Positions 46,872 through 62,631 of a DNA stretch of 64,000 bases are shown here, piece by piece (position 1 is the first letter of the stretch; every line of letters starts with the position of its first letter). Source of the DNA: Candidatus Latescibacterota bacterium. Lineage in GTDB: Bacteria > Latescibacterota > UBA2968. The position numbers were made by a program, and so were the translations under genes. Where the stretch lies: positions 672,001 to 736,000 of the forward strand of contig OZ242320.1 in assembly GCA_965208125.1 (NCBI GenBank). Reading direction: 5' to 3'. The notes beneath the pieces were generated by a model. The model was not told the DNA's origin, ran no database searches, and saw only the letters and a program-made list of their open reading frames with translations.

Positions 46872-48002
46872 TTATGCCTCCGAATCCATAAACTCCCGCA
46901 CGTATTCGCCTTTGGGCGTCAACACAGTGGTGACATCAATCACATTGGGTACTTGATCCATAATATTCTCACGGACCTGTTTAACGATATCATGCCCTTC
47001 TGATATCGTGATATCCGGCTCGACTTCCGCTGTTAATTCAACATACAGAGCACTCCCCATGGTCCGTATGCGGATATTGTGGGTAAATGTAATGGCTTCT
47101 ACCTTCTCCGCCATCTCTTCAATCAGGGCAATCACCTTTAACGAAGGCGCGAAATCAATCAACTCTTTAACCGCGGAACTCCCAACCTCCCAGGCACTGT
47201 GCAGGATCAGGCTCGCAATCACGATAGTAGTAATCTGATTGATCAAACTGAAGGTAGGAAAATAAGATGAGACAAAAATGCTCAGAAGAACGGCAAACGC
47301 ACTGGCAGAATCGGCTCGATGATGCCATGCTTTCGCAATCAGCATGGGGCTGTTCAGACCTATGCCCTTTCGCCGAGTAATGCGAAAAAGTATTTCCTTG
47401 GCAATTATTGAAATAATGATGACCACACTGACGAGGAACAAATGACTTGAGAAATCTGCATCATGGCCTACGGAATGCTCGTGACCATGAGCCTCTTTTG
47501 TAGCAGGTGTTTCCACGGGATGCTCATGACTGTGCGCCTCTATTGTATCAGGCGTTGTGGGATGCTCGTGACCGTGGGCCTCCTTTGCATCAGGTACTTC
47601 TGCTTTTTCCACAATATTTACGGAAATCCCATGCCCATGGCCATGCCCATGACCGTGATAGCCAAAAGTACTCAGGATCAGTTCTATACTCACAAACGCG
47701 AGGAGAAAAGCTGCAAAAAGCGACAGGAGAGTTTCGATCCGACGGCGGCCGTAATGGAATCTCAAATCCTCACGCTTTTTCTCAGACTGCGATCCCATCA
47801 GCACAGCGACCCAGGCGACGACATCGGATACAATATCCGATAGCGAGTGGACCCCTGCAGCAATCAATGGAAGGTATCCGGTAAAATTGCCAAGACCAAT
47901 TTTTACGACACCCAGTATGCCGTTCGTGATCCCACTTGCAGTGATAAGGGTTGTCGCTTCCTTAAGTCTGATTTTTTCACTGTGATCTACATGTGCGTGC
48001 AT
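46872..48002 (-). CDS. Cation diffusion facilitator with a His-rich loop
   Basis: HSLSD, WHHRAD, C-terminal ZT_dimer domain; inserted HGHGHGHG and three EAHxHEH repeats. Confidence 0.9.
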   Translation of the reverse strand: MHAHVDHSEKIRLKEATTLITASGITNGILGVVKIGLGNFTGYLPLIAAGVHSLSDIVSDVVAWVAVLMGSQSEKKREDLRFHYGRRRIETLLSLFAAFLLAFVSIELILSTFGYHGHGHGHGHGISVNIVEKAEVPDAKEAHGHEHPTTPDTIEAHSHEHPVETPATKEAHGHEHSVGHDADFSSHLFLVSVVIIISIIAKEILFRITRRKGIGLNSPMLIAKAWHHRADSASAFAVLLSIFVSSYFPTFSLINQITTIVIASLILHSAWEVGSSAVKELIDFAPSLKVIALIEEMAEKVEAITFTHNIRIRTMGSALYVELTAEVEPDITISEGHDIVKQVRENIMDQVPNVIDVTTVLTPKGEYVREFMDSEA

Positions 48003-48046
48003 AACACTTTCTCGAATTAACAGTTATAGATTTTTTCACCCTACCT

Positions 48047-48760
48047 CTATTCACTCTTTTTTCCCACAAAAAAAGGACCTAGCGATTCGACATAAAGCGC
48101 GGTTTGCTGGGTTTTTCTCATATCCTGCACAACGCGAGAAAGCGGATAGAGTTCTGCACCGATCAGGCCAATCACAAAATCGTTGTCATCGGCATCCAAA
48201 CCGTAACTCGCCAAGCGAATATCGTGCGCGTAATCTTCGCGTCCATAAGCGCGTCCGATAGAAGCGTGCTCCATCAAAATTTTGCGCTGTTCCCTGTGAT
48301 CGAGACGAGCAAAAGCCCCATTGCGACGCAGCGGGTACCAGATCGCCCAGGGCCATTCGGAATTGAGCACATTATCGCGTGGTCGGTCAATAAGGGCGTA
48401 TTCGAGATCTGGCTCGTAACCCGTGGCATACGTTCGCCCGAGCATGGTCAGTTCAGGGCGACGTGTACAGGCAGAGAATGGATCGCTACTGAGCAGCGCG
48501 CGAATATCTGTCACAAACAAATCCGGCGATTCCGTCAAAAAAACAATGCCAATGCCATAGGGATCTTGCACATCGAGATAGAGCGCGGCATCGAGACCGC
48601 TTTGATCGAGCACCTCAGATACAGCATCGACATCCCTGACATCAGTAAAAACCTGCAACTGCATGTAAAGCCGCCGATCACTCGTTTGCGGTTTCCCATC
48701 AACAGGCGCGCCGTGTTCGAGAATATCGAGTTTTTCTTTCGATTCAGTGGGATGATGCAC
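48047..48760 (-). CDS. Chlorite dismutase/coproheme decarboxylase (HemQ) family
   Basis: YPLRR..ILMEHASIG, YGLDADDNDFV, MRKT, GPFFVG. Confidence 0.8.
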   Translation of the reverse strand: MHHPTESKEKLDILEHGAPVDGKPQTSDRRLYMQLQVFTDVRDVDAVSEVLDQSGLDAALYLDVQDPYGIGIVFLTESPDLFVTDIRALLSSDPFSACTRRPELTMLGRTYATGYEPDLEYALIDRPRDNVLNSEWPWAIWYPLRRNGAFARLDHREQRKILMEHASIGRAYGREDYAHDIRLASYGLDADDNDFVIGLIGAELYPLSRVVQDMRKTQQTALYVESLGPFFVGKKSE

Positions 48761-48903
48761 GTCTTCAGGCCTCCAGTTATGTGTTCTACTGCAAAACTCT
48801 TTTCATCTTCAACGCGAAAAGATATGACTTGACCCTAAAAAGAGCAAGTCCCAGATCAGGCTACTGATCTGAGACTTGGAGTTAGGATAACAGACCAATA
48901 AAA

Positions 48904-51105
48904 TTAAAAAAACGACAACTTGTAATGCGCTTTAACACTCCGCCCTGTCTCGGGCATCACGGATCGAATGCGCGAGAGATGATTGCGGTATTCCGTATCC
49001 AAAAGGTTGTCCAAAGAGAGAATAATACTATGGCGGGTATGGTCGGTGTTAATGTCGCGCTGGGCATAGACACTGAAAACAGCATAGCCATCCGTAGGAT
49101 CTTCGAATATATCCACGCGCTCCTGTCCTGCGACAAATTCCGCAGTCCCACCAACCGTAAGATAAGGATGCTGATATGTCGCACTGCCCACAAACTTGAG
49201 CGGTGGCATCTCGGGCAAGGGCAACTGCTCATCCCGGTTCTCTCCACGCACATAACTGCCGTTCAATTCCAGATCCAAACGCGTATTCAAACGCCACCCC
49301 AGATGCATCTCCAGACCCAAAAATCGCGCGGCAACACCATCGGCAGCGTAAATCGGCAGCAGTTGGGCAAAATTGATCTCTCCGGTATTGCGCGGGGCAA
49401 TATAGGTATCAAACTCGTTCCAATATCCGCTCAAAACAAAATCGACACCCGGTTGCAAATAATGAAAAAAGACCTCGAAGCCCAGACTCGTCTCTGCTTC
49501 CAGATCAACATTACCCACCTCAAAAGTGTACGCAGCCAGATGCGGTCCATCGTTGTAAAGCTCTTCAATCGTGGGCACGCGCTGAGACCGGCTGAAATTG
49601 AAACCTCCAGTCAGCCGATCAGTAATGTTCACAAGCGGACTAATTGCTGCGGACCAGGCATGAAAGGTGCGATCTACACCGAGATCTGCAATGCTCTTTG
49701 TTCTTGGACGCGGATCAAAGTCGGCATACGTATAACGCGCAGAAGCCTGAAATTCGATGTGTCGATAGCTAAACTCGTGATAAAAACTAAGGTAAGCGTT
49801 TTGCTCTCGCGTGGGCGGCGTAAAAACAAACGCCCCCAATTTGAGATGGTGGTGGCCAAAGCCCAGGGACAGAACGGTATTTCGCGTCTGACCCTGTGTG
49901 TTCATAAGCAATTTGAGATCACCGCGGTAGTCGTGGAACAAAAACTCGGACCCAATATTACCGCTGGATTCGTACTCGAAGTGGTGATAGTAAGTCCTGG
50001 TAAAATCCACCTCTACACTACTGAACACCTGACGATCAAAATGGTATGCCGCCTTGCCATCAAATACCCGACGCTCAATATCCAGATCCACGCCATTGGG
50101 ATGCCCGCCAATAAATCCGCCGGGAATGCCGTATTGGGTCAAAAACTGATCAAAAGAAGCCCCGATATATCCCCGGTCAGTCGGATATGACAGACCGAGC
50201 GTATGCGTACGCGTTTCAATCGGTGTATTGGCGAGCCTGCCAATAGGCGTTTGCACATCCCGGGTATTGCGGTACGTAGTCTCGGCATACAGCGCAAGCG
50301 GACCCACGGGCACTGTAATCCCAGCGGCAGAGAGATACCCTCGATTGACCGTCTCGCCATAAGCACCAACACTGCCAGAAACGCGCTGCGGATGGTCTTC
50401 CGGAATCTTCTGTTTCACGACATTGATAACCCCACCAATAGCCGATGCCGTGTGAAGCAGGATGCGCGGTCCCCGAATAATTTCGAGGCGTTCTGAATTA
50501 AAAGGCTCAAGCGTAACCGCGTGATCAGCAGAAGTAGCGGATAAATCGCGGGTCTCCATACCATCTATATTGATCTGCACGCGATCGCCACTGAGACCGC
50601 GTATAACTGGTCGAGCAGGTGCAGGTCCCATGCTGCGGATGGCGACGCCGATTTCGTTTTTCATCGTCTCTGCAAGCGTGAGGCTGTACCTCTTCTGAAG
50701 TTCATCTCCAGAAAGCACGCCAGTCGCTTCGTACAATTCTTCAAAGCGCGTCTCCGCATTTTTTTCTACCACCTCAATGGTATCCGTAACAATTTCCCGG
50801 GCGACCATTTCGATGTACAGAACGGGCAATTTCTCATCCGAAACCCTTATTTCCCGACTCACCAATCCATACCCGACACGAAAAAAAGACAGGCGATGAA
50901 CGCCCTCCGGCAGATGAAAGATAAAACGGCCCCGATCATCGGTTGTCGTGCCCTCTGCGCCATCATTGACTTTGATATCAACATCGCCGATTGCACGTTG
51001 GGTTTTGCGATCAAAAACATATCCCTCGAGCAATCGCGTCTCTTGAGATGCGCCGATCGCAAAAAAAAAGAACACAACAACCAAAAAAGAAGTCGTGAAT
51101 CTCAA
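48904..51105 (-). CDS. TonB-dependent receptor (ZnuD-like), copy A
   Basis: N-terminal carboxypeptidase-regulatory-like domain, RPVIRGLSGDRV plug, ELYNDGPHLAAYTFEVGN, C-terminal F; TTG start after GGAG. Confidence 0.88.
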   Translation of the reverse strand: MRFTTSFLVVVFFFFAIGASQETRLLEGYVFDRKTQRAIGDVDIKVNDGAEGTTTDDRGRFIFHLPEGVHRLSFFRVGYGLVSREIRVSDEKLPVLYIEMVAREIVTDTIEVVEKNAETRFEELYEATGVLSGDELQKRYSLTLAETMKNEIGVAIRSMGPAPARPVIRGLSGDRVQINIDGMETRDLSATSADHAVTLEPFNSERLEIIRGPRILLHTASAIGGVINVVKQKIPEDHPQRVSGSVGAYGETVNRGYLSAAGITVPVGPLALYAETTYRNTRDVQTPIGRLANTPIETRTHTLGLSYPTDRGYIGASFDQFLTQYGIPGGFIGGHPNGVDLDIERRVFDGKAAYHFDRQVFSSVEVDFTRTYYHHFEYESSGNIGSEFLFHDYRGDLKLLMNTQGQTRNTVLSLGFGHHHLKLGAFVFTPPTREQNAYLSFYHEFSYRHIEFQASARYTYADFDPRPRTKSIADLGVDRTFHAWSAAISPLVNITDRLTGGFNFSRSQRVPTIEELYNDGPHLAAYTFEVGNVDLEAETSLGFEVFFHYLQPGVDFVLSGYWNEFDTYIAPRNTGEINFAQLLPIYAADGVAARFLGLEMHLGWRLNTRLDLELNGSYVRGENRDEQLPLPEMPPLKFVGSATYQHPYLTVGGTAEFVAGQERVDIFEDPTDGYAVFSVYAQRDINTDHTRHSIILSLDNLLDTEYRNHLSRIRSVMPETGRSVKAHYKLSFF

Positions 51106-51123
51106 AACGAATCTCCAACAGAG

Positions 51124-51163
51124 AAAAAGCCCCCACCCTGTGTCTGAAAGACCGGATGAGGGC
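51124..51163 (-). terminator. Terminator-like hairpin between lipoprotein and TBDR (A)
   Basis: gccctcatcc..gggtgggggc-TTTTT. Confidence 0.65.
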
Positions 51164-51173
51164 AAAGCAGTTA

Positions 51174-51662
51174 CTACTCTCCGACATGCACCGGAATGGG
51201 AATGGTGCGAAAATCCACATGATCGCCATGCGTGACCTGGAGTTCAATCGTAGTTTCGCCTACCTTGAGACCCCGCAGGTGAAAATCAAACTTGCCGACA
51301 TCGCCAGGATCCTGAACAACTTCCAAAACCGTGGGATCGGCAATCGCCCATGTAAATCTGAAATCCGGATCATCTGGCGGGTCAATCTCGTCGCCATGGT
51401 CATCCAGAAAACGGATGCTCCAGTGTGGCGTTTCCTCATTGAGGGGGGCGTCGAGATGATCTTTCCGACCACCGCTGGCATCAATCTGCCCTTGATAATA
51501 GCGGAAAAAACGATTGCCCGAATCTATGATAACCAGACCCTCGGGTTCGAAATGCTCTTCCTGGTGAGACATAGGATCATCACTACCACAACCAATCACA
51601 AACAAAGTCAGAACTGCCACAGCAGCAAAAATGCGTTGAAACGAGTTTCTTACAAAAAACAT
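51174..51662 (-). CDS. His-containing lipoprotein, copy A
   Basis: Lipobox VIGC, HQEEHFE, HGDH; SD AGGAG. Confidence 0.85.
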   Translation of the reverse strand: MFFVRNSFQRIFAAVAVLTLFVIGCGSDDPMSHQEEHFEPEGLVIIDSGNRFFRYYQGQIDASGGRKDHLDAPLNEETPHWSIRFLDDHGDEIDPPDDPDFRFTWAIADPTVLEVVQDPGDVGKFDFHLRGLKVGETTIELQVTHGDHVDFRTIPIPVHVGE

Positions 51663-51800
51663 GATAGTCTCCTGAATGGTAAAACCTGTACAGGACGCAC
51701 GGGTAGAGAACACATAGAGGGAGAGACTCTGCCCGCGCTCGCAAAAAAGACGTAAAAATATAAAAAATAATGCAAATTTCAGTATTAAGATATTCAGTAT

Positions 51801-52079
51801 TCAGGAAACTACTGGAGGGGATCGGCCCTGAGGCGAAAGGAAAAACTGGTGGGATAAAAATGTGAGATGCGGCAGAATAGCAAAACAACAGGCATATAAT
51901 ACACCAAAAACGACTATCGCACTGATAAGACCACTAAAGCTATAAACCCAATGGCAAACGAGGCAATGGATGTCATGTTCAACATGGTCAACCGCATGCC
52001 CAAAGGCAAAGACAAACGCGCCGATGAACAATATGGCGATCAGCCTTTTAACGAGTGGGTGTCTGAGGTAGAGATTCAT
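51801..52079 (-). CDS. DUF2946/CruR/CutF-like uORF, copy A
   Basis: TM segment, GHAVDHVEHDIHCLVCH, C-terminal QGRSPPVVS. Confidence 0.75.
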   Translation of the reverse strand: MNLYLRHPLVKRLIAILFIGAFVFAFGHAVDHVEHDIHCLVCHWVYSFSGLISAIVVFGVLYACCFAILPHLTFLSHQFFLSPQGRSPPVVS

Positions 52080-52246
52080 TTTTAATACTATATAGGTCAT
52101 CTCGAGCAAACATTTTCTGCTACAAGTGGCGTTGATCTTTTTCGCCTCTTAAGTTCAAAGATAGAGCTTGACCCCAAAAAGAGCAAGCCCCAGATCAGCA
52201 GACTGAACTGGGGCGTAGTGAAGTGTCAGCATATCTGACCGCTAAA

Positions 52247-54448
52247 TTAAAAGAAAAACATCTTGTAATGCACTTTAACACTCCGCCCTGTTTCGGGCAT
52301 CACGGATCGAATGCGCGAAAGATGATTGCGGTATTCCGTATCCAAAAGGTTATCAACAGAGAGAATAATACTATGGCGGGTATGATTGGTGTTAATATCG
52401 CGCTGGGCATACACACCGAAAACAGCATAGCCATCCGTAGGCTCTTCGAATATATCCACCCGCTCTTGTCCTGCGACAAATTCCGCAGTCCCGCCAACCG
52501 TAAGATAGGGATGCTGATATGTCGTACTGCCCACAAACTTGAGCGGTGGCATCTCGGGCAAGGGCAACTGCTCATCCCGGTTCTCTCCACGCACATAACT
52601 GCCGTTCAATTCCAGATCCAAACGCGTATTCAAACGCCACCCCAGATACATCTCCAGACCCAAAAACCGAGCGGCAACACCATCGGCAGCGTAAATCGGC
52701 AGCAGTTGGGCAAAATTGATCTCTCCGGTATTGCGCGGGGCAATATAGGTATCAAACTCGTTCCAATATCCGCTCAAAACGAAATCGACGCCCGGTTGCA
52801 AATAGTGAAAAAAAACTTCGAAGCCCAGGCTCGTCTCGGCCCCGAGATCGACATTGCCCACCTCAAAAGTGTACGCAGCCAGATGCGGTCCATCGTTGTA
52901 AAGCTCTTCAATAGTAGGCTCCCGCTGGGATCGGCTGAAATTAAAACCGCCAGTTAGCTGATCGGTAATGTTCACAAGCGGACTAATTGCCGCAGACCAG
53001 GCGTGAAAGGTGCGACCTACATCGAGAGCCGCAATACTCCTTGTCGTCGGACGCGGATCAAAATCGGCATACGTATAACGCGCAGAAGCCTGAAATTCGA
53101 TATCGCGATAAATAAATTCGTGGTAGAGACCTAATGAAGCGCATTGCTCTCGCGTGGGCGGCGTAAAAACAAAACCCCCCAATTTGAGGTTATGATGGCC
53201 AAAGCCGAGGGACAGAACGGTATTTCGCGTCTGACCCTGCGTGTTCATAAGCAATTTGAGATCACCGCGGTAGTCGTGGAACAAAAACTCGGACCCAATA
53301 CTGCCGCTGGACTCGTACTCGAAGTGGTGATAGAAGGTCCTGGTAAAATCCATTTCTACACTACTGAACACCTGGTGATCAAAATGGAAGGCCGCCCTGC
53401 CATCAAATATCCGACGATCAATATCCAGATCTACGCCATTGGGATGCCCGCCAATAAATCCACCGGGAATGCCGTATTGGGTATCGAACTGATCAAACGA
53501 GGCACCGATATACCCCCGGTCAGTCGGGTATGACAGACCGAGCGTATGTGTGCGCGTATCAATAGGTGTATTGACAAGCCTGCCAATGGGCGTTTGCACA
53601 TCCCGGGTATTGCGGTACGTAGTCTCGGCATACAGCGCAAGCGGACCCACAGGCACTGTAATCCCAGCGGCAGAGAGATACCCTCGATTGACCGTCTCGC
53701 CATAAGCACCAACACTGCCAGAAACGCGCTGCGGATGGTCTTCCGGTATCTTCTGTTTGACGACATTGATAACCCCACCAATAGCCGATGCCGTGTGAAG
53801 CAGGATGCGCGGTCCCCGAATAATTTCGAGGCGTTCTGAATTAAAAGGCTCAAGCGTAACCGCGTGATCAGCAGAAGTAGCGGATAAATCTCGAGTCTCC
53901 ATACCATCTATATTAATCTGCACGCGGTCGCCACTGAGGCCACGTATAACTGGTCGAGCAGGTGCAGGCCCCATGCTGCGGATGGCGACGCCGATTTCGT
54001 TTTTCATCGTCTCTGCAAGCGTGAGACTGTACTTCTTCTGAAGTTCATCTCCAGAAAGCACGCCAGTCGCTTCGTACAATTCTTCAAAGCGCGTCTCTGC
54101 ACTTTGGGCGACCACCTCAATGGTATCCGCAACAATTTCCCGGGCAACCATTTCGATGTACAAAATGGGCAATTTCTCATCCGAAACCCTTATTTCCCGA
54201 CTCACCAATCCATACCCGACACGAAAAAAAGACAGGCGATAAACACCCTCCGGCAGACGCAAGATAAAACGGCCCCGATCATCGGTTGTTGTACCCACCG
54301 CGTCATCATCGAGTATGATATCGACATTGTCAATTGTGCGTTGGGTCTTGTGATCAAAAACATATCCCTCGAGCAAACGCATTTCACTCGATGCGTTGAT
54401 CGCGGAAAAGCAGACCACAAAAACGAGAATGAAGGCTGTAAATCTCAA
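52247..54448 (-). CDS. TonB-dependent receptor (ZnuD-like), copy B
   Basis: Same motifs as copy A; SD AGGAGG then TTG at 54448. Confidence 0.88.
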   Translation of the reverse strand: MRFTAFILVFVVCFSAINASSEMRLLEGYVFDHKTQRTIDNVDIILDDDAVGTTTDDRGRFILRLPEGVYRLSFFRVGYGLVSREIRVSDEKLPILYIEMVAREIVADTIEVVAQSAETRFEELYEATGVLSGDELQKKYSLTLAETMKNEIGVAIRSMGPAPARPVIRGLSGDRVQINIDGMETRDLSATSADHAVTLEPFNSERLEIIRGPRILLHTASAIGGVINVVKQKIPEDHPQRVSGSVGAYGETVNRGYLSAAGITVPVGPLALYAETTYRNTRDVQTPIGRLVNTPIDTRTHTLGLSYPTDRGYIGASFDQFDTQYGIPGGFIGGHPNGVDLDIDRRIFDGRAAFHFDHQVFSSVEMDFTRTFYHHFEYESSGSIGSEFLFHDYRGDLKLLMNTQGQTRNTVLSLGFGHHNLKLGGFVFTPPTREQCASLGLYHEFIYRDIEFQASARYTYADFDPRPTTRSIAALDVGRTFHAWSAAISPLVNITDQLTGGFNFSRSQREPTIEELYNDGPHLAAYTFEVGNVDLGAETSLGFEVFFHYLQPGVDFVLSGYWNEFDTYIAPRNTGEINFAQLLPIYAADGVAARFLGLEMYLGWRLNTRLDLELNGSYVRGENRDEQLPLPEMPPLKFVGSTTYQHPYLTVGGTAEFVAGQERVDIFEEPTDGYAVFGVYAQRDINTNHTRHSIILSVDNLLDTEYRNHLSRIRSVMPETGRSVKVHYKMFFF

Positions 54449-54462
54449 AACATACCTCCTAT

Positions 54463-54502
54463 AAAAAGCCCTCACCCTGTGTCTGAAAGACCGGGTGAGG
54501 GC
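54463..54502 (-). terminator. Terminator-like hairpin between lipoprotein and TBDR (B)
   Basis: gccctcaccc..gggtgagggc-TTTTT, perfect 10-bp stem. Confidence 0.7.
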
Positions 54503-54512
54503 AAAGCAGTTA

Positions 54513-55001
54513 CTACTCTCCGACATGCACGGGAATGGGAATCGTGCGAAAATCCACATGATCGCCATGCGTGACCTGGAGTTCAATCGTAGTTTCGCCT
54601 ACCTTGAGACCGCGCAGGTGAAAATCAAACTTGCCGACATCGCCAGGATCCTGAACAACTTCCAAAACCGTGGGATCGGCAATCGCCCATGTAAATCTGA
54701 AATCCGGATCATCTGGCGGGTCAATCTCGTCGCCATGGTCATCCAGAAAACGGATGCTCCAGTGTGGCGTTTCCTCATTGAGGGGGGCGTCGAGATGATC
54801 TTTCCGACCACCGCTGGCATCAATCTGCCCTTGATAATAGCGGAAAAAACGATTGCCCGAATCTATGATAACCAGACCCTCGGGTTCGAAATGCTCTTCC
54901 TGATGAGACGTGGGATCGTCACTACCACAACCGATCACAAAGAAAGTCAGAACTGCCATAGCAGCAAAGTTGCGTTGAAAAGATTTTCTACTAAAAAACA
55001 T
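54513..55001 (-). CDS. His-containing lipoprotein, copy B
   Basis: Mature part essentially identical to copy A. Confidence 0.85.
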   Translation of the reverse strand: MFFSRKSFQRNFAAMAVLTFFVIGCGSDDPTSHQEEHFEPEGLVIIDSGNRFFRYYQGQIDASGGRKDHLDAPLNEETPHWSIRFLDDHGDEIDPPDDPDFRFTWAIADPTVLEVVQDPGDVGKFDFHLRGLKVGETTIELQVTHGDHVDFRTIPIPVHVGE

Positions 55002-55140
55002 GATATAGTCTCCTGAATGGTAAAACCTGTACAGTACGCACGGGTAGAGAACACGCAGAGGAAGCCCCTCTTATGCCCGCACAAAAAGGCACAAAAATAC
55101 AGAAAAATAATGCAAACTTTAGTATTGAGATATTCAGTAT

Positions 55141-55428
55141 TCAGAAGACTACTGGAGGGGATCGACTCTGAGGTGAAAGGGAAAACTGGTGGGATAAAAA
55201 TGTGGGATGCGGCAGAGCCAAAAAATAACAGGCGTATAATACACCAAAAACGACTATGGCACTGATAAGACCACTAAAACTATAAACCCAATGGCAAACG
55301 AAGCAATGGGTGTCATGTTCACCATGTTCACCATGGTCAACCGCATGCCCAAAGGCAAGGGCAAACGCGCCGACGAGCAATATGACGATCAGCGTTTTAA
55401 CGAGCGGGGGTCTGAGGTAGAGATTCAT
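55141..55428 (-). CDS. DUF2946/CruR/CutF-like uORF, copy B
   Basis: GHAVDHGEHGEHDTHCFVCH, C-terminal QSRSPPVVF. Confidence 0.75.
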   Translation of the reverse strand: MNLYLRPPLVKTLIVILLVGAFALAFGHAVDHGEHGEHDTHCFVCHWVYSFSGLISAIVVFGVLYACYFLALPHPTFLSHQFSLSPQSRSPPVVF

Positions 55429-55481
55429 TTTTAATACTATATGGGGCTACCACGAGCAAAAATAGTTGTCTATCAGTGCGT

Positions 55482-55958
55482 CTATTTGTCCCCTGCGGAA
55501 TGCGCTCGCAATTGTCTAATCGATTGCAATCGCAAAAGTAGCTTTTCGAGATTTGATTTTAGCTCTTTTTGGATCTCGACCATTTGCTCGGGCGTCACCT
55601 GTAGATCTTCTTTTTCGTGATGGTGATCATGGCCGTGATCATGGCCGTGATCATGGCCGTGATCATGGGCCTCTGCCGAGTCATCTCCCGGCACTTCAAC
55701 CACATTTTTTTCCCACAATTCAAAGTCTTTTTCGATAACCTGAAGACTATCGCGTATTTCCACAGCATGATGTGAAAGTGACTTTAGACTATCCAGTTGA
55801 TTCTCAAATTGCTTTTCAATTTCCATCATCGCCTTGTGAATATCCGCCGCCTGTTGCAAGTGGTGTGCATCTTCTTTATTTTCTCCCTGGCAAGAAACAA
55901 AGAACGCAAACACTATAACACTTATCACTTTGAGCCGCATTGGATTTTGTTTCTCCAT
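55482..55958 (-). CDS. His-rich coiled-coil lipoprotein
   Basis: Lipobox FVSC; HDHGHDHGHDHGHDHHH. Confidence 0.8.
   Translation of the reverse strand: MEKQNPMRLKVISVIVFAFFVSCQGENKEDAHHLQQAADIHKAMMEIEKQFENQLDSLKSLSHHAVEIRDSLQVIEKDFELWEKNVVEVPGDDSAEAHDHGHDHGHDHGHDHHHEKEDLQVTPEQMVEIQKELKSNLEKLLLRLQSIRQLRAHSAGDK
55623..55668. repeat. 12-bp tandem repeat (about 3.8 x gtgatcatggcc) encoding HDHG
   Basis: Read directly from the sequence. Confidence 0.9.
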
Positions 55959-55986
55959 ATTTTACGTCTCCTTTCACATGTTTATC

Positions 55987-56385
55987 CTATTTTTCACAAT
56001 CATCTTTGCGACATAAATGATGATTCCGAATATGGCCTGAGATCAAAAATCCCGACCCTAAAACGGTCCCCACCCGTTCCCCTATTTCCCCAAAAAGATC
56101 ATGGCCAACCATAACCATTACGACGAGGAGGGACAGCCCGAAGATACCGAAACCAATGACAAATTGATCTTTATGACGGCGACACCCCAATCCAAGAGCA
56201 AGAATGCTGGTGGGCAGAATCAGCCACATCAAAAGCGCATGAAAATGTTCATCGCCAACAAATGTAGTTGCCAACAACGGAAACGCAATAAGTGCAACAG
56301 GCAACGTCAAACAATGGATCGCACACATTGTTGAAAGAACAATGGCGATTTTGTCACCTGCGGTTTGATAGCTCAAACGCGCCAT
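55987..56385 (-). CDS. MerC-domain membrane protein
   Basis: DKIAIVLSTMCAIHCLTLP, four TM segments, GHIRN. Confidence 0.85.
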   Translation of the reverse strand: MARLSYQTAGDKIAIVLSTMCAIHCLTLPVALIAFPLLATTFVGDEHFHALLMWLILPTSILALGLGCRRHKDQFVIGFGIFGLSLLVVMVMVGHDLFGEIGERVGTVLGSGFLISGHIRNHHLCRKDDCEK

Positions 56386-56420
56386 TTATTATCTCCTTTT
56401 TATTCATAATAACTACACAC

Positions 56421-56954
56421 TTAATATGTATCACCAGGATTGTTTTTCATATCGCGCTTATCCACCACCTCGGCTTTGCTGATGCGAAAAAAGAGTTCGG
56501 AAGGATCTTTTTGCAACAATTCCAGGCGACCTGTAATAGTAACGGGATAATAAGTAAAATCAATCGGTTTGCTCGGGTGAATATCTACCAGAGACTCAGG
56601 CCCACCCCCGCCTACACAAAATGAACATCCCCCAAGTGAATACGGGGTCAAAACAAAACGCGCCTGTTTTTTTTGAGCCGATAGCGGAATCATAAACCCG
56701 ACAAGCTCGACGTATTTGCCATTCATTTTTTTTAACGTATCGGAAAAAATGGGTATAAAGGTCGGCGCATAAGGATCATAACTCACCGTCGCAAGGGTTT
56801 CCCAAAGCGACCCCTTCATCATCTGGGGCAGTGGAGACGCCTGAAGCTCTGGGCGATGGTCTGTTGACGAGGGCGGTGTCTCACTGCCAGTATCTATTCT
56901 CAAAACCACAGCAAATAACAAAATAAACATTACCGTGCGTTGTATATACATCAC
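56421..56954 (-). CDS. DUF3299 (ZrgD-like) protein
   Basis: GKYVELVGFMIPL, FVLTP..GCSFC..P. Confidence 0.8.
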   Translation of the reverse strand: MMYIQRTVMFILLFAVVLRIDTGSETPPSSTDHRPELQASPLPQMMKGSLWETLATVSYDPYAPTFIPIFSDTLKKMNGKYVELVGFMIPLSAQKKQARFVLTPYSLGGCSFCVGGGGPESLVDIHPSKPIDFTYYPVTITGRLELLQKDPSELFFRISKAEVVDKRDMKNNPGDTY

Positions 56955-58225
56955 GATACCTCCACCAGTGTTTGTGCAACATCTGTCCGATAGACCTGAA
57001 GCGCGGGTATAAGAGCCGATACACTACCCAACACAAGCGCCAGACCAATGAGCCAGAATTCATCGGATAAAATAATCCATCCCGTCAAATTTATATGCTG
57101 TGCCTCGCGCACCCATGCGCCAATCACTTCCGTGCTGGCATGCCCAAGCACAAAGCCCAATCCCGTGCCCATAAATGTAAGCAAAATCCCCTCCAAAAGC
57201 ACCTGAACAAAAAGTTTACCGCGACTTGCCCCCAAAGCACGCATCATAGCCAGATCGTATCGCCGATCTTTCATCGCATTATAAAGTGCCACAAAAATGC
57301 TCAACGCCGCTGCAAACACCAGAACCCCACCAAAAACCCGCACCACCTCCAACCCAACACCGAGCAATGCAAAAAGGCGCGTTGTCTCAAATGCGGGGGA
57401 CGCAGCCTGAAATTTGGTCTCTTTATTAACATACCTCGGAAATGACACGGCTGCAATAGGTGAACGATAGCGAATCAACAAACCCGTAACTTCGCGCTCG
57501 GCATCGGCTTCACTGTCCATCGGCAAACCCAGAACATCGCGTGCGCGGTTCTCATCGGCCTGGCTCTCCAGGTGGTGATCCAGTCCATCGCCCTCTTCTT
57601 CATGCGGTTCGTGAACCAGCCAGACCGTTTCCACAGCAGTCAGTAACAGACGGTCAATAATCGAACCCGTTGGTTGCAAAACACCCACCACGCGAAACGG
57701 TTGCGATTCGTGTTGTTCAGAAGCCGTTTCTGCGGTCAAACCATGCGAACTAATAACCTCATCGCCCAGTGCAAGACCTGTCTCTCTGGCAACCTGCGCG
57801 CCTACAACCACCTGGTATGGTCCATCCCAAAAAGTACCATCAACCAACTCCGCCCGGTAGTGTTTGGCGTATGCGGATGTCGTTCCCACAATGCGATATC
57901 CCCGATAATTATCCCCCAACGCCAGAGGTATCACCTGTGCAACTGCTCTGTTTTTTGCCAGTTCACGCGCCTCTAAAAGCGGAATATTTCCCGTTGGCAC
58001 GTCAACGTGAAATATACTGGATAAAATCAATTGCAGGGGACTGCCCTTAGCACCCACAACGACATCAATATTTTGAACATTGCGGTGCAAATTCTCTTCA
58101 AATTGTTCGCCAAAAAGCAACAAAACAACGACAATACCCGTTCCAAGCCCCAACAATATCATATTGAGCAATGTATTCAACTTGCGCCGATAAATATAGG
58201 CCAGACTAATTTTGAAGAGATTCAT
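56951..58225 (-). CDS. ABC permease, FtsX/MacB type (ZrgC-like)
   Basis: DVVVGAKGSPLQLILSSIFH, IPLALGDNYRGYRIVGT, LAMMRALGAS. Confidence 0.88.
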   Translation of the reverse strand: MNLFKISLAYIYRRKLNTLLNMILLGLGTGIVVVLLLFGEQFEENLHRNVQNIDVVVGAKGSPLQLILSSIFHVDVPTGNIPLLEARELAKNRAVAQVIPLALGDNYRGYRIVGTTSAYAKHYRAELVDGTFWDGPYQVVVGAQVARETGLALGDEVISSHGLTAETASEQHESQPFRVVGVLQPTGSIIDRLLLTAVETVWLVHEPHEEEGDGLDHHLESQADENRARDVLGLPMDSEADAEREVTGLLIRYRSPIAAVSFPRYVNKETKFQAASPAFETTRLFALLGVGLEVVRVFGGVLVFAAALSIFVALYNAMKDRRYDLAMMRALGASRGKLFVQVLLEGILLTFMGTGLGFVLGHASTEVIGAWVREAQHINLTGWIILSDEFWLIGLALVLGSVSALIPALQVYRTDVAQTLVEVS

Positions 58226-58875
58226 GCGGGCAATCCCACCTGTTCATCGAGCGCAATACAATGGTCAAAATTATCGGTAATACGATGATCATGTGAGGCC
58301 ACCACCAGAGTAGCCTGAACCTCTTGCGCCGATGACGTGAGCAAATCCAACACCTGTTTGCTGCGCGCGTCATCCAATCCAGATGTCGGTTCATCGGCCA
58401 ACAGCAATTGGGGGCGGTTAACAACAGCCCGAGCGATTGCCACGCGCTGTTGTTGACCAAAACTCAGTTCCGATGGATAAGCATGTTCGCGACCTGCGAG
58501 ACCGAGAGCCGCAAGCACCTGTTGAACACGCGCTTTGTCCTGCTGTACACCGGCCATATAATGCGCCATAAGCAAATTTTCCAGCACCGTAAAAACCGGG
58601 AACAGGTGAAATTGTTGAAAAACAATGCCAATGCGTTGCCCGCGAAATTGATCACGAGCGGTTTCTGTCAGTGCATAAATATCCTGTTTGGCAATATGCA
58701 CACTGCCCTGTGAGGGCTTTAACAAACCAGCTATAATATGCAAAAGCGTCGTCTTCCCGCTTCCCGATGGCCCGTGCAACAGCCATTTTTCATCGGGCTG
58801 AGCCTCAATATATTCTGGCAAGTCCAATACAAGACGACCGCCATAAACATGCCCAACGTGTTTAAGTGCAAACAT
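58222..58875 (-). CDS. ABC ATP-binding protein (ZrgB-like)
   Basis: GPSGSGKTT, LSFGQQQRVAIARA, LADEPT, SHD. Confidence 0.93.
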   Translation of the reverse strand: MFALKHVGHVYGGRLVLDLPEYIEAQPDEKWLLHGPSGSGKTTLLHIIAGLLKPSQGSVHIAKQDIYALTETARDQFRGQRIGIVFQQFHLFPVFTVLENLLMAHYMAGVQQDKARVQQVLAALGLAGREHAYPSELSFGQQQRVAIARAVVNRPQLLLADEPTSGLDDARSKQVLDLLTSSAQEVQATLVVASHDHRITDNFDHCIALDEQVGLPA

Positions 58876-58949
58876 GAGATAGTACTCAAAAAATGCGATG
58901 TGTGACTTCAAAATGTGCCGTCAAAATCGAGCGGATGAGGCAGTTTCGG

Positions 58950-60170
58950 TCATGCGGGCTCCTCGGTCATGATAAGCTCCGGAAACGGGTTCCGGAACCC
59001 TGCCCAGGTCTTGCTGTTAGCGGAGGCGAGGCGCTCGTCGAGCAGGCACGCGTCGAGGCGAGCGCGCATCGACGCCTCGTGCATCTGCTGGCCGATGAAG
59101 ACGAGTTGCTGCGCGCGATCGCCGAAGCGAGGATGCCAGTCCGGATGCTGGTCAGGGCGCTGACCCTCGGGGTGCCCCCAGTGTTCGCGAGGCACGGCCG
59201 CCCACCACATCCCGACGGGGTTCACATTGATGACGCCGCCGGCTTGAGACCACTCGTAGAGGATCCGATGGTCAGCGGCGACCCAGAAGAAGCCCTTCGA
59301 GCGGAGCACGCCGCGCCAGTTCTCGTCGTCGTGCAGAAGCGCCCACAGCTTCTCGGCGTCGAAGGGCTGCGACGTCCGATAGGTGAAGCTCGAAATCCCG
59401 TACTCCTCGGTCTCCGGCGTGTGCTCACCCTGAAGCTCTCGAATCCAGCCGGCGGAGTGCGCCGCCTTCTCGTAGTCGAACAGGCCCGTGTCGAGCACGC
59501 ATTCGAGCGGGACCTGTCCGTGCGTCGCCATGAGGACCTTCGCGCCGGGGTTGAACGCTTTCACGATGGCCTCGACCTCGAGAGCCTGATCGTCGCTCAC
59601 GAGATCGAGCTTGTTCAGCACGATGACGTCGGCGAACTCGATCTGGTCGATGAGCAGGTCGGTCACCGTCCGGTGATCTTCTTCGCCCAGCGACTCACCG
59701 CGGTCTTGGAGCGCCTCGGAGGCGTTGTAGTCCCGCAGGAAGCGCGCCGCGTCCACGACTGTGACCATTGTATCGAGGCGCGAAACCTGACCCAGGCTCA
59801 CACCGTTCTCGTCCTCGAAGGTGAAGGTCTGCGCGACGGGAATGGGCTCCGAGATCCCCGTGGACTCGATGAGCAGGTAGTCGAAGCGTCCCTCCTGCGC
59901 GAGCCGTGAGACCTCGGCGAGCAGGTCGTCTCGCAGCGTGCAGCAGATGCAGCCGTTCGACATCTCGATCAGCTTCTCCTCGGTCCGCGAGAGTTCCGCA
60001 CCGCCGCGCTCAACGAGCGTCGCGTCGATGTTGACCTCGCTCATATCGTTGACGATGACCGCGACGCGCATGCCCTCGCGGTTGTTGAGCACGTTGTTGA
60101 GTAGAGTGGTCTTACCTGCGCCGAGAAAGCCGGACAGGACAGTAACGGGAAGTCTCTCTGACAGGGGCAC
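58950..60170 (-). CDS. COG0523 G3E metallochaperone GTPase (ZigA/YciC-like)
   Basis: [28 protein letters not shown], CobW_C domain; GTG start after GAGG. Confidence 0.93.
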
Positions 60171-60250
60171 TTTAGTTTCCTCTCTTAAAGGGTGATGACA
60201 TACAACAGCGAATCGTTCAAACCGGTGGCGATTCAGTTTGCGGTCGTGCT

Positions 60251-61297
60251 TCACCTGTTGCCCACTCGCCAAACCGTTGCGCCGCCCTGAGCGTCGAGCG
60301 CAGCAAGCCCGCGTCCATCTGGTCGCCAGTACAAGGCGCTGACAACATCTGCCATAAGCGCAACTCCTATCGGATTGCCTTGTCCATCGCGCCTAAGTGA
60401 CCACACAACTACGCCGCCATCCCGAGCTCCCGAGGCCAAGCGCATCCCGCGGCGAGCGAAGGCGAGCGTTGTAACAGTTTGAACATGAAGTTCTAGAGCG
60501 CCGGGCCGCGTGCCTTCGGGACCACTTCCCCAGAAGCTCCAGACCGTCACCGCCTCGCCTCCGCCGGTGGCCAAAAGGGTGCCAGTGTCATCGAAGGCCA
60601 AGGCCGACGGCTTGGCAGGATATCCTGACATCATCGAGTCCTGCTCCGTGGAGCGACGCCAGAAATGCACCGAGTTGTCCTGGCTGCCGCAGGCCACGAT
60701 ATCCCCGTCCGGGCTCAGTACCATCGACACCAGGGAGCCCCTCCACTCCAGCTTCTGGCGAAGTTCTCCAGTAGATGCGTCGAAGAACGTCACCCGACCG
60801 TAACAGGCCGTCGCCAGCTCCCCTGCGCTGGACCAGGCAATCGCGCTGACGGTGCTGGGATGATCATCAGATCGCCAGACTTCTCCGCCGTCCACACCAT
60901 ACGCGCAAACCTGCCGGGAGCAGGAGGCCGCCAGCCATTGGCCGTCCGGCGACCACGCCACGTTCTCCACCCAATCGCTGCCGACATCGATAGCCTGTTT
61001 TACCTGACCTTCGGCGACACCCCAGATAAGGACTCGTCCGTCCTGGCCAGCCGTAGCGAACGCGGTTCCGCTCGGGTGGATCGCCATCGCGAGCACACCG
61101 CCATCATGAGCTCCCTGCCGGGCCCAGGCACTTGCGCCGGACTTGCCGTCGAACGCGTAGATGCCACCCGCGGCGTCACTGACCACCAGCGCCTCACCGC
61201 GGAGGGTCCAGCCCCCGGCGATGGCGTAGTCGCCGACCGCCGCAGACCAGCCCCGGCGAAGAACACCCTTTGAGCTGACGACATTCAAATCAGACAT
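60251..61297 (-). CDS. WD40-repeat beta-propeller protein
   Basis: [39 protein letters not shown]. Confidence 0.9.
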
Positions 61298-62631
61298 GCC
61301 TCGAATCCCTGCCGCATGCTCTGCTCATCGAGGTTGCGGCCGATGAAGACGAGCTGATTGCGCCGGGGCGCGTCTCCCCATGGACGCTCCGGCTGGCCGT
61401 CAAAGAGCATGTGAACCCCCTGGAAGACGAAGCGAGACGACTCACCCGCGAGGCTGATGAAGCCCTTCATTCGGAAGATGTCCACCCCGCGCTCACGAAG
61501 CAGTTCGCCAAGCCAGATGTCGAGCCTTTCGGAATCTACGTCGCCGTCCATCTCAATCGCGATCGAGCCGACCTCGTCGTCGTGCTCGTGCTGTGCGACC
61601 CAGGTACGCTCGACCTCTTGCTTGATTGTCGCTCCTTCCGCGTTCGTCAGTTGGAGATCAAACTCCTCCGCGGTGTGCTGGGCGTATAGGCCAACCCGCA
61701 CCTGCGTATCGACCTCCAAGAAGAACGACTTGCGCCCTGCGGAATCGAGTTGGAGATTCACATGCTTTCCGACAGGAATATCTTCCCCCGGGCGAATGAG
61801 CTCCGCAGGTTCGGCGTACCGCCGCACACTCCACTCCGCGCCCTCACGAAGGGCAGCGTCATCCGTGCCCTGGTCGGGCACGACGACGAGCGACATCGTC
61901 GGATCAGGTCCATCGGCGAGGCTGAGTTCGTAGCGGCCGATATCGAGCGAATAGACGCCAGTCCATTCGAACGGATACTCCGGCTCGAGGAAGGCGGGAC
62001 GACGCTCGAGCACCTGGTCCAGATCGAAGGCACCGAGGTTGAGTACCGTGTCCAGGGAGACGTTCGCTCGCTCGCTACGCACGACTTGCGCCATTCGGTT
62101 CATGTCCTGGATCCGAGCCTCGAGCCTGTCGAGCACCTCGCTATTGACGAGGTCCGTCTTGTTAAGAACAAGGACGTCAGCGAACGCGATCTGTTCCGTG
62201 CTCTCATCGCTTCGTCCGAGCTGCTGCTCGATGTGGGCTGCATCGACGAGCGTGACGATCCCGTCAAGCGCGAACTCCGCGCGAATCTCGTCGTCCATGA
62301 AAAAGGTTTGAGCGACCGGACCGGGATCGGCGAGCCCCGTGGTCTCAACCAACACGTAGTCAAACTTGTCTCGGCGCTTCATGAGGTTGCCGAGCACGCG
62401 AATCAGGTCTCCGCGCACCGTGCAGCAGATGCAGCCGTTCGACATTTCGAAGATCTCCTCGTCAGCATTTATGACGAGCTCATGATCGATGCCGACCTCC
62501 CCGTATTCGTTCTCGATCACGGCAATGCGCTTGCCGTGCTCCTCACTCAAGATCCGGTTGAGCAGAGTCGTCTTGCCAGAGCCGAGGAAGCCGGTGAGGA
62601 TGGAAACAGGTACTTTTCGCGGTGTGTTCAT
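61285..62631 (-). CDS. COG0523/CobW-family GTPase with an inserted domain
   Basis: TGFLGSGKTT, ENEYGE, GCICC, ETTG, NKTD; about 130-aa insert before CobW_C. Confidence 0.93.
   Translation of the reverse strand: MNTPRKVPVSILTGFLGSGKTTLLNRILSEEHGKRIAVIENEYGEVGIDHELVINADEEIFEMSNGCICCTVRGDLIRVLGNLMKRRDKFDYVLVETTGLADPGPVAQTFFMDDEIRAEFALDGIVTLVDAAHIEQQLGRSDESTEQIAFADVLVLNKTDLVNSEVLDRLEARIQDMNRMAQVVRSERANVSLDTVLNLGAFDLDQVLERRPAFLEPEYPFEWTGVYSLDIGRYELSLADGPDPTMSLVVVPDQGTDDAALREGAEWSVRRYAEPAELIRPGEDIPVGKHVNLQLDSAGRKSFFLEVDTQVRVGLYAQHTAEEFDLQLTNAEGATIKQEVERTWVAQHEHDDEVGSIAIEMDGDVDSERLDIWLGELLRERGVDIFRMKGFISLAGESSRFVFQGVHMLFDGQPERPWGDAPRRNQLVFIGRNLDEQSMRQGFEACLI

Follow-up and report, generated by a model that had tools for sequence, protein, structure and literature searches.

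How can a gene be translated when its ribosome binding site is complementary to the end of the reading frame that precedes it? This question is raised by a locus on the minus strand of a 64,000-nucleotide (nt) stretch of Candidatus Latescibacterota bacterium DNA (assembly GCA_965208125.1, contig OZ242320.1, positions 672,001 to 736,000; hereafter, over its full length, the window). The locus holds two tandem copies, A and B, of a three-gene unit, in which a small upstream open reading frame (uORF) is followed after 136-139 nt by an open reading frame (ORF) for a lipoprotein of 162 amino acids (aa) and, about 8 nt further on, by a gene for a TonB-dependent receptor. The genome contains two copies each of the uORF and the lipoprotein gene, both in the window, relatives retain the order uORF, lipoprotein, TonB receptor, and the gene spacing suggests that each unit is an operon. 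It had been predicted from the sequence alone that the last codons of the uORF form a 14-base pair (bp) stem with the Shine-Dalgarno (SD) region of the lipoprotein gene, and that a ribosome paused on the preceding proline codons would free the SD. Here, pairing, conservation, protein architecture and geometry identify the stem as a real feature, and we consider it fairly probable that each unit is controlled by an arrest-peptide switch of the CruR/CutF kind whose anti-SD strand is the end of the uORF itself.

The 5' arm of the stem consists of the last three codons of the uORF, its TGA stop codon and two further bases, and the 3' arm holds the motif AGGAG, located 6 nt (copy A) or 8 nt (copy B) before the ATG of the lipoprotein gene (Table 1). 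Both pairings were found at the predicted positions and comprise 14 pairs each, contiguous in copy A and with two G-U pairs in either copy. Between the copies the stem differs at two positions, both U/C changes opposite G, which confirms that the substitutions are compatible with wobble pairing. In copy A the stem is part of the minimum free energy (MFE) structure calculated with RNAfold (z score -2.3; 4 of 200 shuffles fold as well), and its probability is 0.96-0.98 across five sequence contexts. Contiguous helices (G-U allowed) between an AGGAG arm and the 420 nt upstream of it were counted across this genome; they reach at least 12 pairs at 19 and at least 14 pairs at 3 of 729 crude ORFs. 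A further hairpin that had been claimed for the loop is indeed predicted, but is poorly supported across homologues, where RNAalifold keeps some of its pairs, one of them with a compensatory change. The sequence CUGAAUA, which closes the 5' arm, is directly repeated once in each copy (51786-51803 and 55126-55143, minus strand).

To follow the pairing through homologous loci, 31 unique uORF-spacer-lipoprotein units were assembled from Latescibacterota genomes, the lipoprotein being detected in 47 of 61 related genomes. Thirty units were analysed; L029, in which the script did not locate the uORF start, was excluded here and included in the pairing analysis of distant loci described below. The pairing is present in these relatives: standard pairs occupy 93.1% of the stem cells, compared with 41.7-53.5% when the partner is slid by one to three columns, and none of 500 shuffles attains this value. 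When the best duplex partner of the SD arm was searched in the uORF and spacer, the stop-codon region was obtained in 29 of the 30 units, and the SD core pairs with this region at a probability of at least 0.9 in 26. RNAalifold, applied to 16 of the units, recovers all 14 pairs. Meanwhile the spacers range from 85 to 288 nt and fall into several unalignable types, with both arms retained. Variation within the stem consists mainly of U or C opposite G (12 and 8 U-G cells at two positions), and all four wobble combinations are found among homologues. Two units carry double changes: in L022 a TAA stop codon is accompanied by the matching C to U change in the 3' arm, and in L026 the insertion of an A behind the stop codon has its counterpart in a U inserted into the 3' arm.

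The spacers themselves show further peculiarities. Motifs containing TGTACA recur in unrelated spacer types (L001, L002, L009, L013-L015, L017, L019-L022, L024 and L026), some of them as inverted repeats of the form GTACA...TGTAC, and could be an operator for a DNA-binding regulator. The 288-nt spacer of L024 is swollen by short tandem repeats (units like GCCTTTTGTG, plus a 30-nt repeat), its arms being kept.

The uORF had originally been taken for a short leader. It encodes instead a conserved membrane protein of 92-95 aa, which consists of an N-terminal hydrophobic segment, a His-rich stretch with a CxxC motif, a second hydrophobic segment downstream of CxxC, and the tetrapeptide RSPP followed by three residues and the stop codon. 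In an alignment of 26 homologues H28, H32, H38, C42, C45, W47, R89, P91 and P92 are invariant, and the two cysteines are likewise kept in all 62 sequences of a larger set, in line with the CXXC of DUF2946. CxxC and RSPP are 43 residues apart in both window copies, L025 carrying the sole indel that the 26-homologue alignment shows within this stretch; the second residue of the tetrapeptide is S in both copies and A in L008 and sister clades. A profile search of 1.84 billion representative sequences returned 60 proteins that share this plan, measure about 90-100 aa and carry GR[SA]PP near the C-terminus. DUF2946 (PF11162) is by far the commonest Pfam match among the relatives (24 of 62 at E <= 1, best 1.5e-6), and it always aligns from CxxC through RxPP onto the C-terminal half of the profile. 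In a rescan of 10 relatives, 9 matched PF11162 with 10.8-21.2 bits, all below the gathering cut-off of 23.7 bits and all ending at profile position 117. At E <= 0.1 neither window copy matches PF11162; lying below the cut-off as well, the window proteins are taken as distant relatives of the family.

This assignment is of interest given what the accessible text of recent papers reports on DUF2946 proteins. CruR (Bp2923) of Bordetella pertussis carries a CXXC motif and, 45 +/- 2 aa apart from it, RAPP three residues from the C-terminus; its ORF opens a TonB-transporter operon, and 162 nt of intergenic sequence lie behind it (Roy et al., 2022; PMC9426467). Toeprinting placed the two Pro codons of CruR in the P and A sites and arrest was obtained in vitro; RSPP was partially arrest-permissive and is depleted from proteomes, and RAPP/RGPP uORFs upstream of TonB receptors are widespread (Fujiwara et al., 2025; PMC12992588). 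The pause on two prolines that had been proposed for the present uORF therefore corresponds to a documented class of arrest. Like CruR, the uORF is the first ORF before a TonB-dependent transporter, begins with a hydrophobic segment and precedes a long intergenic region, whereas it ends in RSPP rather than RAPP, scores below the PF11162 cut-off, has the second hydrophobic segment, is separated from the receptor by a lipoprotein gene and belongs to the phylum Latescibacterota. The metal that it would sense is likely to be zinc rather than copper, and its proposed output is unmasking of the SD instead of Rho-dependent termination.

Regarding this output, CutF of Rhodobacter capsulatus, another DUF2946 protein, is the closer model. 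According to the available text of the two reports, ribosomes stalled at its Pro-rich C-terminus open an mRNA stem in which the SD of the following gene is shielded, the stall is induced by copper, and CutF acts only in cis on the multicopper oxidase CutO (Ozturk et al., 2023; PMC9973294; bioRxiv 10.1101/2025.02.05.636593). The present units resemble CutF in that the helix on the downstream SD, here 14 bp including AGGAG, lies within reach of a ribosome stalled on the Pro codons. They differ from it in having CxxC, RSPP and a lipoprotein plus TonB receptor in place of CxxxC, PPP and a multicopper oxidase; moreover, the CutF stem-loop, as described there, is a local intergenic hairpin, while here the anti-SD strand is formed by the last codons and stop codon of the uORF across a loop of about 120 nt. 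Since the target is an uptake system, a regulatory logic opposite to that of CutF is expected. Stems sequestering an SD that are disrupted by a stalled ribosome are also described in the accessible text on SecM-SecA, ApdA and ApdP, which possess an N-terminal localisation signal and whose arrest motif, R-A-(G/P)-P, halts the ribosome while Pro-tRNA occupies the A site (PMC10987492; PMC12992588). In contrast to SecM, MifM, VemP and ApdA/P, the genes downstream of the present uORF encode no Sec or YidC machinery but a family-less lipoprotein and a TonB-dependent receptor, and where SecM, ApdA and ApdP are described as being released by translocon pulling, the uORF product bears a metal-binding motif. 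No account of an SD-masking helix for a CruR-like uORF of the TonB-receptor type was found in the literature searched, and the DUF2946 or CutF-like protein lists of the cited papers may already cover Latescibacterota; the term "Shine-Dalgarno" does not occur in the accessible text of the CruR paper (PMC9426467).

The geometry of the locus suits such a mechanism. If the Pro codons CCU and CCA occupy the P and A sites, respectively, the 5' arm starts immediately downstream of the A-site codon. Counted from the first base in the P site, the partners of AGGAG would then fall at +12 to +16, at the rim of the ribosomal mRNA channel. In the proposed scheme, each tandem unit would be an operon whose first gene is a regulatory ORF of the CruR/CutF (DUF2946-like) type. 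In free mRNA the last three codons, stop codon and two following nt would pair across the spacer of about 120 nt with the SD region, so that translation of the lipoprotein would be poor, as would probably be that of the closely linked gene for the TonB-dependent receptor. The 5' arm would lie beneath a ribosome arrested on the two Pro codons (P and A sites), which would make the ribosome binding site (RBS) cheaper to open and allow the uptake genes to be translated. Metal bound by the nascent His/Cys motif would be expected to alter the duration of the stall; if the analogy with CruR holds, it would relieve the stall and uptake would be shut off. The parts of this scheme that we infer are the stall, its control by metal, the common transcript and the consequences for translation.

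The effect of a stalled ribosome was modelled as the free energy required to open positions -16 to +5 of the RBS, a measure adopted after the probability of being unpaired had given no free SD. Over the 30 units, the median opening cost falls from 11.5 kcal/mol in free mRNA to 6.4 kcal/mol with the stalled ribosome, relief is positive in 28 of the 30, and copy A drops from 12.6 to 8.6 kcal/mol. Among 150 background genes with AGGAG the median is 6.8 kcal/mol, and 13 of them lie at or above 11.5; therefore the switch would shift the RBS from unusually closed to ordinary.

Distant upstream coding segments that pair with a downstream SD are familiar from the MS2 coat-replicase and rpmI-rplT systems, in which translating ribosomes open the SD; we know of no arrest motif or sensor domain in either. 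Plain translational coupling of this kind could also operate here, any ribosome that reaches the stop codon melting the 5' arm without programmed arrest or metal sensing. Since the stop codon lies within the arm, the latter is completely covered by a ribosome that terminates there; a ribosome modelled at the stop codon gives about the same result as a stalled one, and the uORF encodes a full-length conserved protein, possibly with a function of its own. Against this, R-x-P-P three codons from the stop and its 43-aa distance from CxxC are invariant and match a family in which arrest has been shown. Likewise L035, the second unit of genome G009, has a uORF of only 53 aa, owing to an internal deletion that removes most of the second hydrophobic segment along with the CxxC loop, yet L035 retains the N-terminus, RSPPVVS-stop and the stem, which is easier to reconcile with a regulatory tail than with a protein product. 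Coupling without arrest is thus regarded as unlikely. Termination-reinitiation and an RNase III site were also considered; the former was set aside on distance alone, 136 nt being too far, and the latter on length alone, the helix being too short.

In CruR, copper relieves the arrest and Rho then terminates transcription, as the available text of that report has it (PMC9426467). By the same token, Rho-dependent termination in the spacer could be the main output of the present units as well, with a stalled ribosome blocking Rho loading and the stem in a secondary role, for instance in stabilising the untranslated leader or in adding to polarity. A Rho gene is present in the genome (689.9 bits; cut-off 509), the spacer is long, as is the 162-nt intergenic region over which CruR acts, and an untranslated lipoprotein gene would be exposed to Rho anyway, so both effects could combine. 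The spacer, however, is U-rich and not visibly C-rich, and it is swapped for unrelated sequence among homologues that keep the arms, suggesting that it is the arms on which constraint acts. Rho as the main output is accordingly considered quite improbable. When 51100-55700 was scanned for sigma-70 promoters and intrinsic terminators, none was found on the minus strand inside either spacer, although the scan returned fewer sites overall than shuffled sequences and the consensus may not apply to this phylum. Rfam covariance models gave no match at E <= 1 on either strand of 48000-58000.

To see whether the arrangement extends beyond close relatives, the family profile was matched against 168 Latescibacterota genomes, of which 79 contained a hit. 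By motif search a uORF was found in 35 of 40 distant loci (none in L079, L081, L082, L084 and L089), and the 40 distant and 8 earlier loci together yielded 46 uORFs in which R[ASGP]PP or HAPP lies 2-11 residues from the C-terminus. With L059 and L069 set aside, in which no downstream ORF had been called, 44 uORF-gene pairs were left. The stall/stop window ranks within the best 5% of partners of the downstream RBS in 12 of these 44 pairs, as opposed to about 2 expected, in a test for which start calls were automatic and several evidently wrong (e.g. L032, L061 and L076) and in which kin are not independent. The pairing is reached with unrelated sequences in L074 and L075 (both with RGPP tails), L051 and L085, and in L077 the UAG stop codon pairs with the stretch between SD and AUG. 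SD masking thus looks common, though not universal, as an output in the family, and other members may use Rho as CruR does. The non-ranking loci include most RAPPVS loci of a sister family, with spacers of about 300 nt. In L054, L055, L058 and L023 a tandem pair of CruR-like uORFs precedes a single downstream gene.

A number of results weigh against the proposed switch. Some concern copy B: here, unlike in copy A, the stem lies outside the MFE structure (probability 0.09-0.79, 0-2.4 kcal/mol above the MFE), the alternative MFE fold pairing the Pro codons with GAGGGG in the spacer, and the opening cost of the RBS, 5.1 kcal/mol in free mRNA and 5.4 with the stalled ribosome, shows no relief. In both copies the SD is predicted to remain paired to weak local partners when the arm is forced to be single-stranded (mean probability of being unpaired 0.03-0.08), namely to UCCUG about 20 nt upstream in copy A and to the second CUGAAU repeat, through AUUCAG, in copy B. 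Of the claim that a ribosome on the two prolines frees the SD, the fall in median opening cost therefore stands, but a fully single-stranded SD and relief in copy B do not. In L013 the stem has two mismatches (energy -7.5). No top-ranked pairing was obtained in 32 of the 44 distant pairs. The link to DUF2946 is distant, copy B reaching 11.6 bits (E 0.48; profile positions 50-117 of 117), below the cut-off, and a six-frame genome search with PF11162 returning nothing at E <= 10. Finally, in four sponge metatranscriptome runs no contig bridges uORF, spacer and lipoprotein, and DNA carry-over is possible in these runs.

Other points bear on whether the stem is a functional structure at all. The CU-rich codons of a PPVVS/F peptide might merely happen to resemble an anti-SD near a strong SD. 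Duplexes of comparable energy are not rare in this genome (-17.9 or better in 77 and -19.5 or better in 34 of 600 control genes by RNAduplex, i.e. 6-13%), and therefore a single locus is only mildly unusual. Both arms are under other constraint, one as a conserved protein C-terminus and the other as an SD. The original statement that structure rather than protein is conserved needs correction: conservation of the pairing cannot be separated from that of the protein, whose C-terminus RSPP[VA]V[SF] is conserved too. Third-codon-position entropies of the arm codons (0.26, 0.90 and 0.00) are not distinct from the ORF mean of 0.55, in a comparison from which the divergent L025 and L035 with its deletion had also been dropped. 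Covariation is modest: the pairing is kept and the changes in L022 and L026 are compensatory, but changes on both sides affect only 2 of the 14 pairs (49 of 500 shuffles are as good) and 3 cells (5 of 500). A mere by-product, on the other hand, does not account for the post-stop noncoding bases and the AUU before CAGGAG, which are kept where spacers are otherwise unalignable, nor for a contiguous helix of at least 10 bp whose end is fixed 1-3 nt past the stop codon in 27 of 30 units. The compensatory changes and the distant homologues with different sequences in the same arrangement argue in the same direction, as does a third uORF paralogue, L047 (genome G014; a similar match in G004), which ends in RSPPVV-stop in another gene context, with an ABC-ATPase-like ORF 96 nt further on, and has neither the arm nor the pairing with the SD (duplex -3.0). 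It is position and conservation, not energy at a single locus, that set the stem apart, and a by-product is judged very unlikely.

In copy B, CCCCUCC (55153-55162, minus strand) is the partner of GAGGGG (about 55066-55074) in the rival pairing, the latter belonging to a small spacer hairpin AGAGG...CCUCU. The inner pairs of this hairpin change in step among homologues, from GG/CC to GGGG/CCCC.

The four sponge runs, all from one study, contain contigs that are 90-97% similar to the lipoprotein, receptor and uORF (51100-55500); therefore relatives of the organism occur in sponge samples. Contig X2 (record 12) runs through uORF B past its stop codon and 74 nt into the spacer, and two RNA contigs extend from the lipoprotein through the SD into another spacer type.

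Which metal the switch might respond to is suggested by gene context. The best NCBIfam match of both receptors, which contain Plug, barrel and CarboxypepD_reg domains, is ZnuD (226 and 223 bits, far below the cut-off). The neighbourhood (46872-48002 and 55482-62631) includes a CDF exporter with a zinc-transporter dimerisation domain (ZT_dimer) and two CobW/COG0523 GTPases. Regulons for zinc limitation typically include COG0523 proteins and ZnuD, and the units lie in a metal island that looks like a zinc-limitation set. ZnuD-like receptors together with COG0523 and CDF neighbours therefore make zinc a reasonable guess, and the context suggests zinc rather than copper. Combining all elements, the uORF product may be a zinc-responsive arrest peptide, anchored in the membrane and equipped with a His-rich CxxC loop besides its two hydrophobic segments, whose RSPP stall and long-range anti-SD helix switch the translation of a ZnuD-like zinc-piracy receptor and the lipoprotein; in this complete form the proposal is tentative and rather doubtful. 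If true, zinc uptake would for the first time be linked to an arrest-peptide switch, and such a switch would be new to the FCB-group phylum Latescibacterota, here with sponge-associated relatives.

Arrest uORFs of the CruR/CutF type have been described only between 2022 and 2025 and from two Proteobacteria, each known output being represented by one case, with CruR acting through Rho and CutF through a hairpin that shields the SD. What is new here is a sub-threshold DUF2946 relative in a new phylum, with a natural RSPP tail and a CruR-type sensor combined with long-loop SD masking, probably in relation to zinc. The locus offers a compact case in an uncultured phylum, with sensor motif, stall motif and anti-SD strand inside 150 nt, and its natural variants (RSPP and RAPP tails, four wobble combinations, a sensor-loop deletion and an armless paralogue) are ready-made mutants. 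If the proposed switch operates, a CruR-type sensor can be wired to SD masking instead of Rho, and such switches may read metals other than copper, here probably zinc. The findings further suggest that families just under the DUF2946 threshold hide many more of them.

Table 1. Positions of the unit features and neighbouring genes, counted from the first letter of the window.
Feature	Positions	Strand	Basis or remark
uORF copy A, 92 aa + stop, CruR/CutF-like	51801-52079	minus	ATG start as in homologues; listed ORF begins further upstream at TTG
CxxC codons copy A (residues 39-42), in His-rich stretch	51954-51965	minus	both Cys invariant in 26/26 and 62/62 sequences
RSPP codons copy A (residues 86-89), presumed arrest motif, three codons before stop	51813-51824	minus	R, P, P invariant; literature
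5' arm (anti-SD) copy A: final three codons, TGA, 2 nt	51799-51812	minus	pairing, folding
Spacer/loop copy A, 121 nt	51678-51798	minus	varies among homologues
3' arm copy A, holds SD AGGAG (51669-51673)	51664-51677	minus	pairing, folding
Lipoprotein gene copy A, 162 aa, presumed regulated gene	51174-51662	minus	ORF and homologue comparison
TonB-dependent receptor copy A (true start uncertain)	48904-51165	minus	domain and NCBIfam matches
uORF copy B, 95 aa + stop	55141-55428	minus	ORF and homologue alignment
CxxC codons copy B (residues 42-45)	55294-55305	minus	homologue alignment
RSPP codons copy B (residues 89-92)	55153-55164	minus	homologue alignment
5' arm (anti-SD) copy B	55139-55152	minus	pairing, folding
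3' arm copy B, holds SD AGGAG (55010-55014)	55005-55018	minus	pairing, folding
Lipoprotein gene copy B, 162 aa	54513-55001	minus	ORF and genome search
TonB-dependent receptor copy B (start approximate)	52247-54499	minus	ORF and NCBIfam match
His-rich 158-aa protein	55482-55958		
MerC-like protein	55987-56385		
DUF3299 protein	56421-56954		
MacB/FtsX permease and ABC ATPase	56951-58911		
Two CobW/COG0523 GTPases	58950-60272, 61285-62631		

The 162-aa protein has a lipoprotein-type N-terminus in both copies. It matched no Pfam or NCBIfam family, and its homologues carry no Pfam annotation save for one weak row; in relatives of family f2 the lipoprotein domain occurs two or three times within one open frame of 420-800 aa. 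Upstream of both uORF starts (52080-52120 and 55429-55470, minus strand) the same conserved stretch is found, TTTGCTCG, about 11 nt, TATAGTATTAAAA and then the ATG. Neither start is preceded by an SD, and the conserved stretch may represent a promoter whose transcript has little or no leader. Between the two COG0523 genes lies a gene for a WD40 beta-propeller protein of 348 aa (60251-61297).

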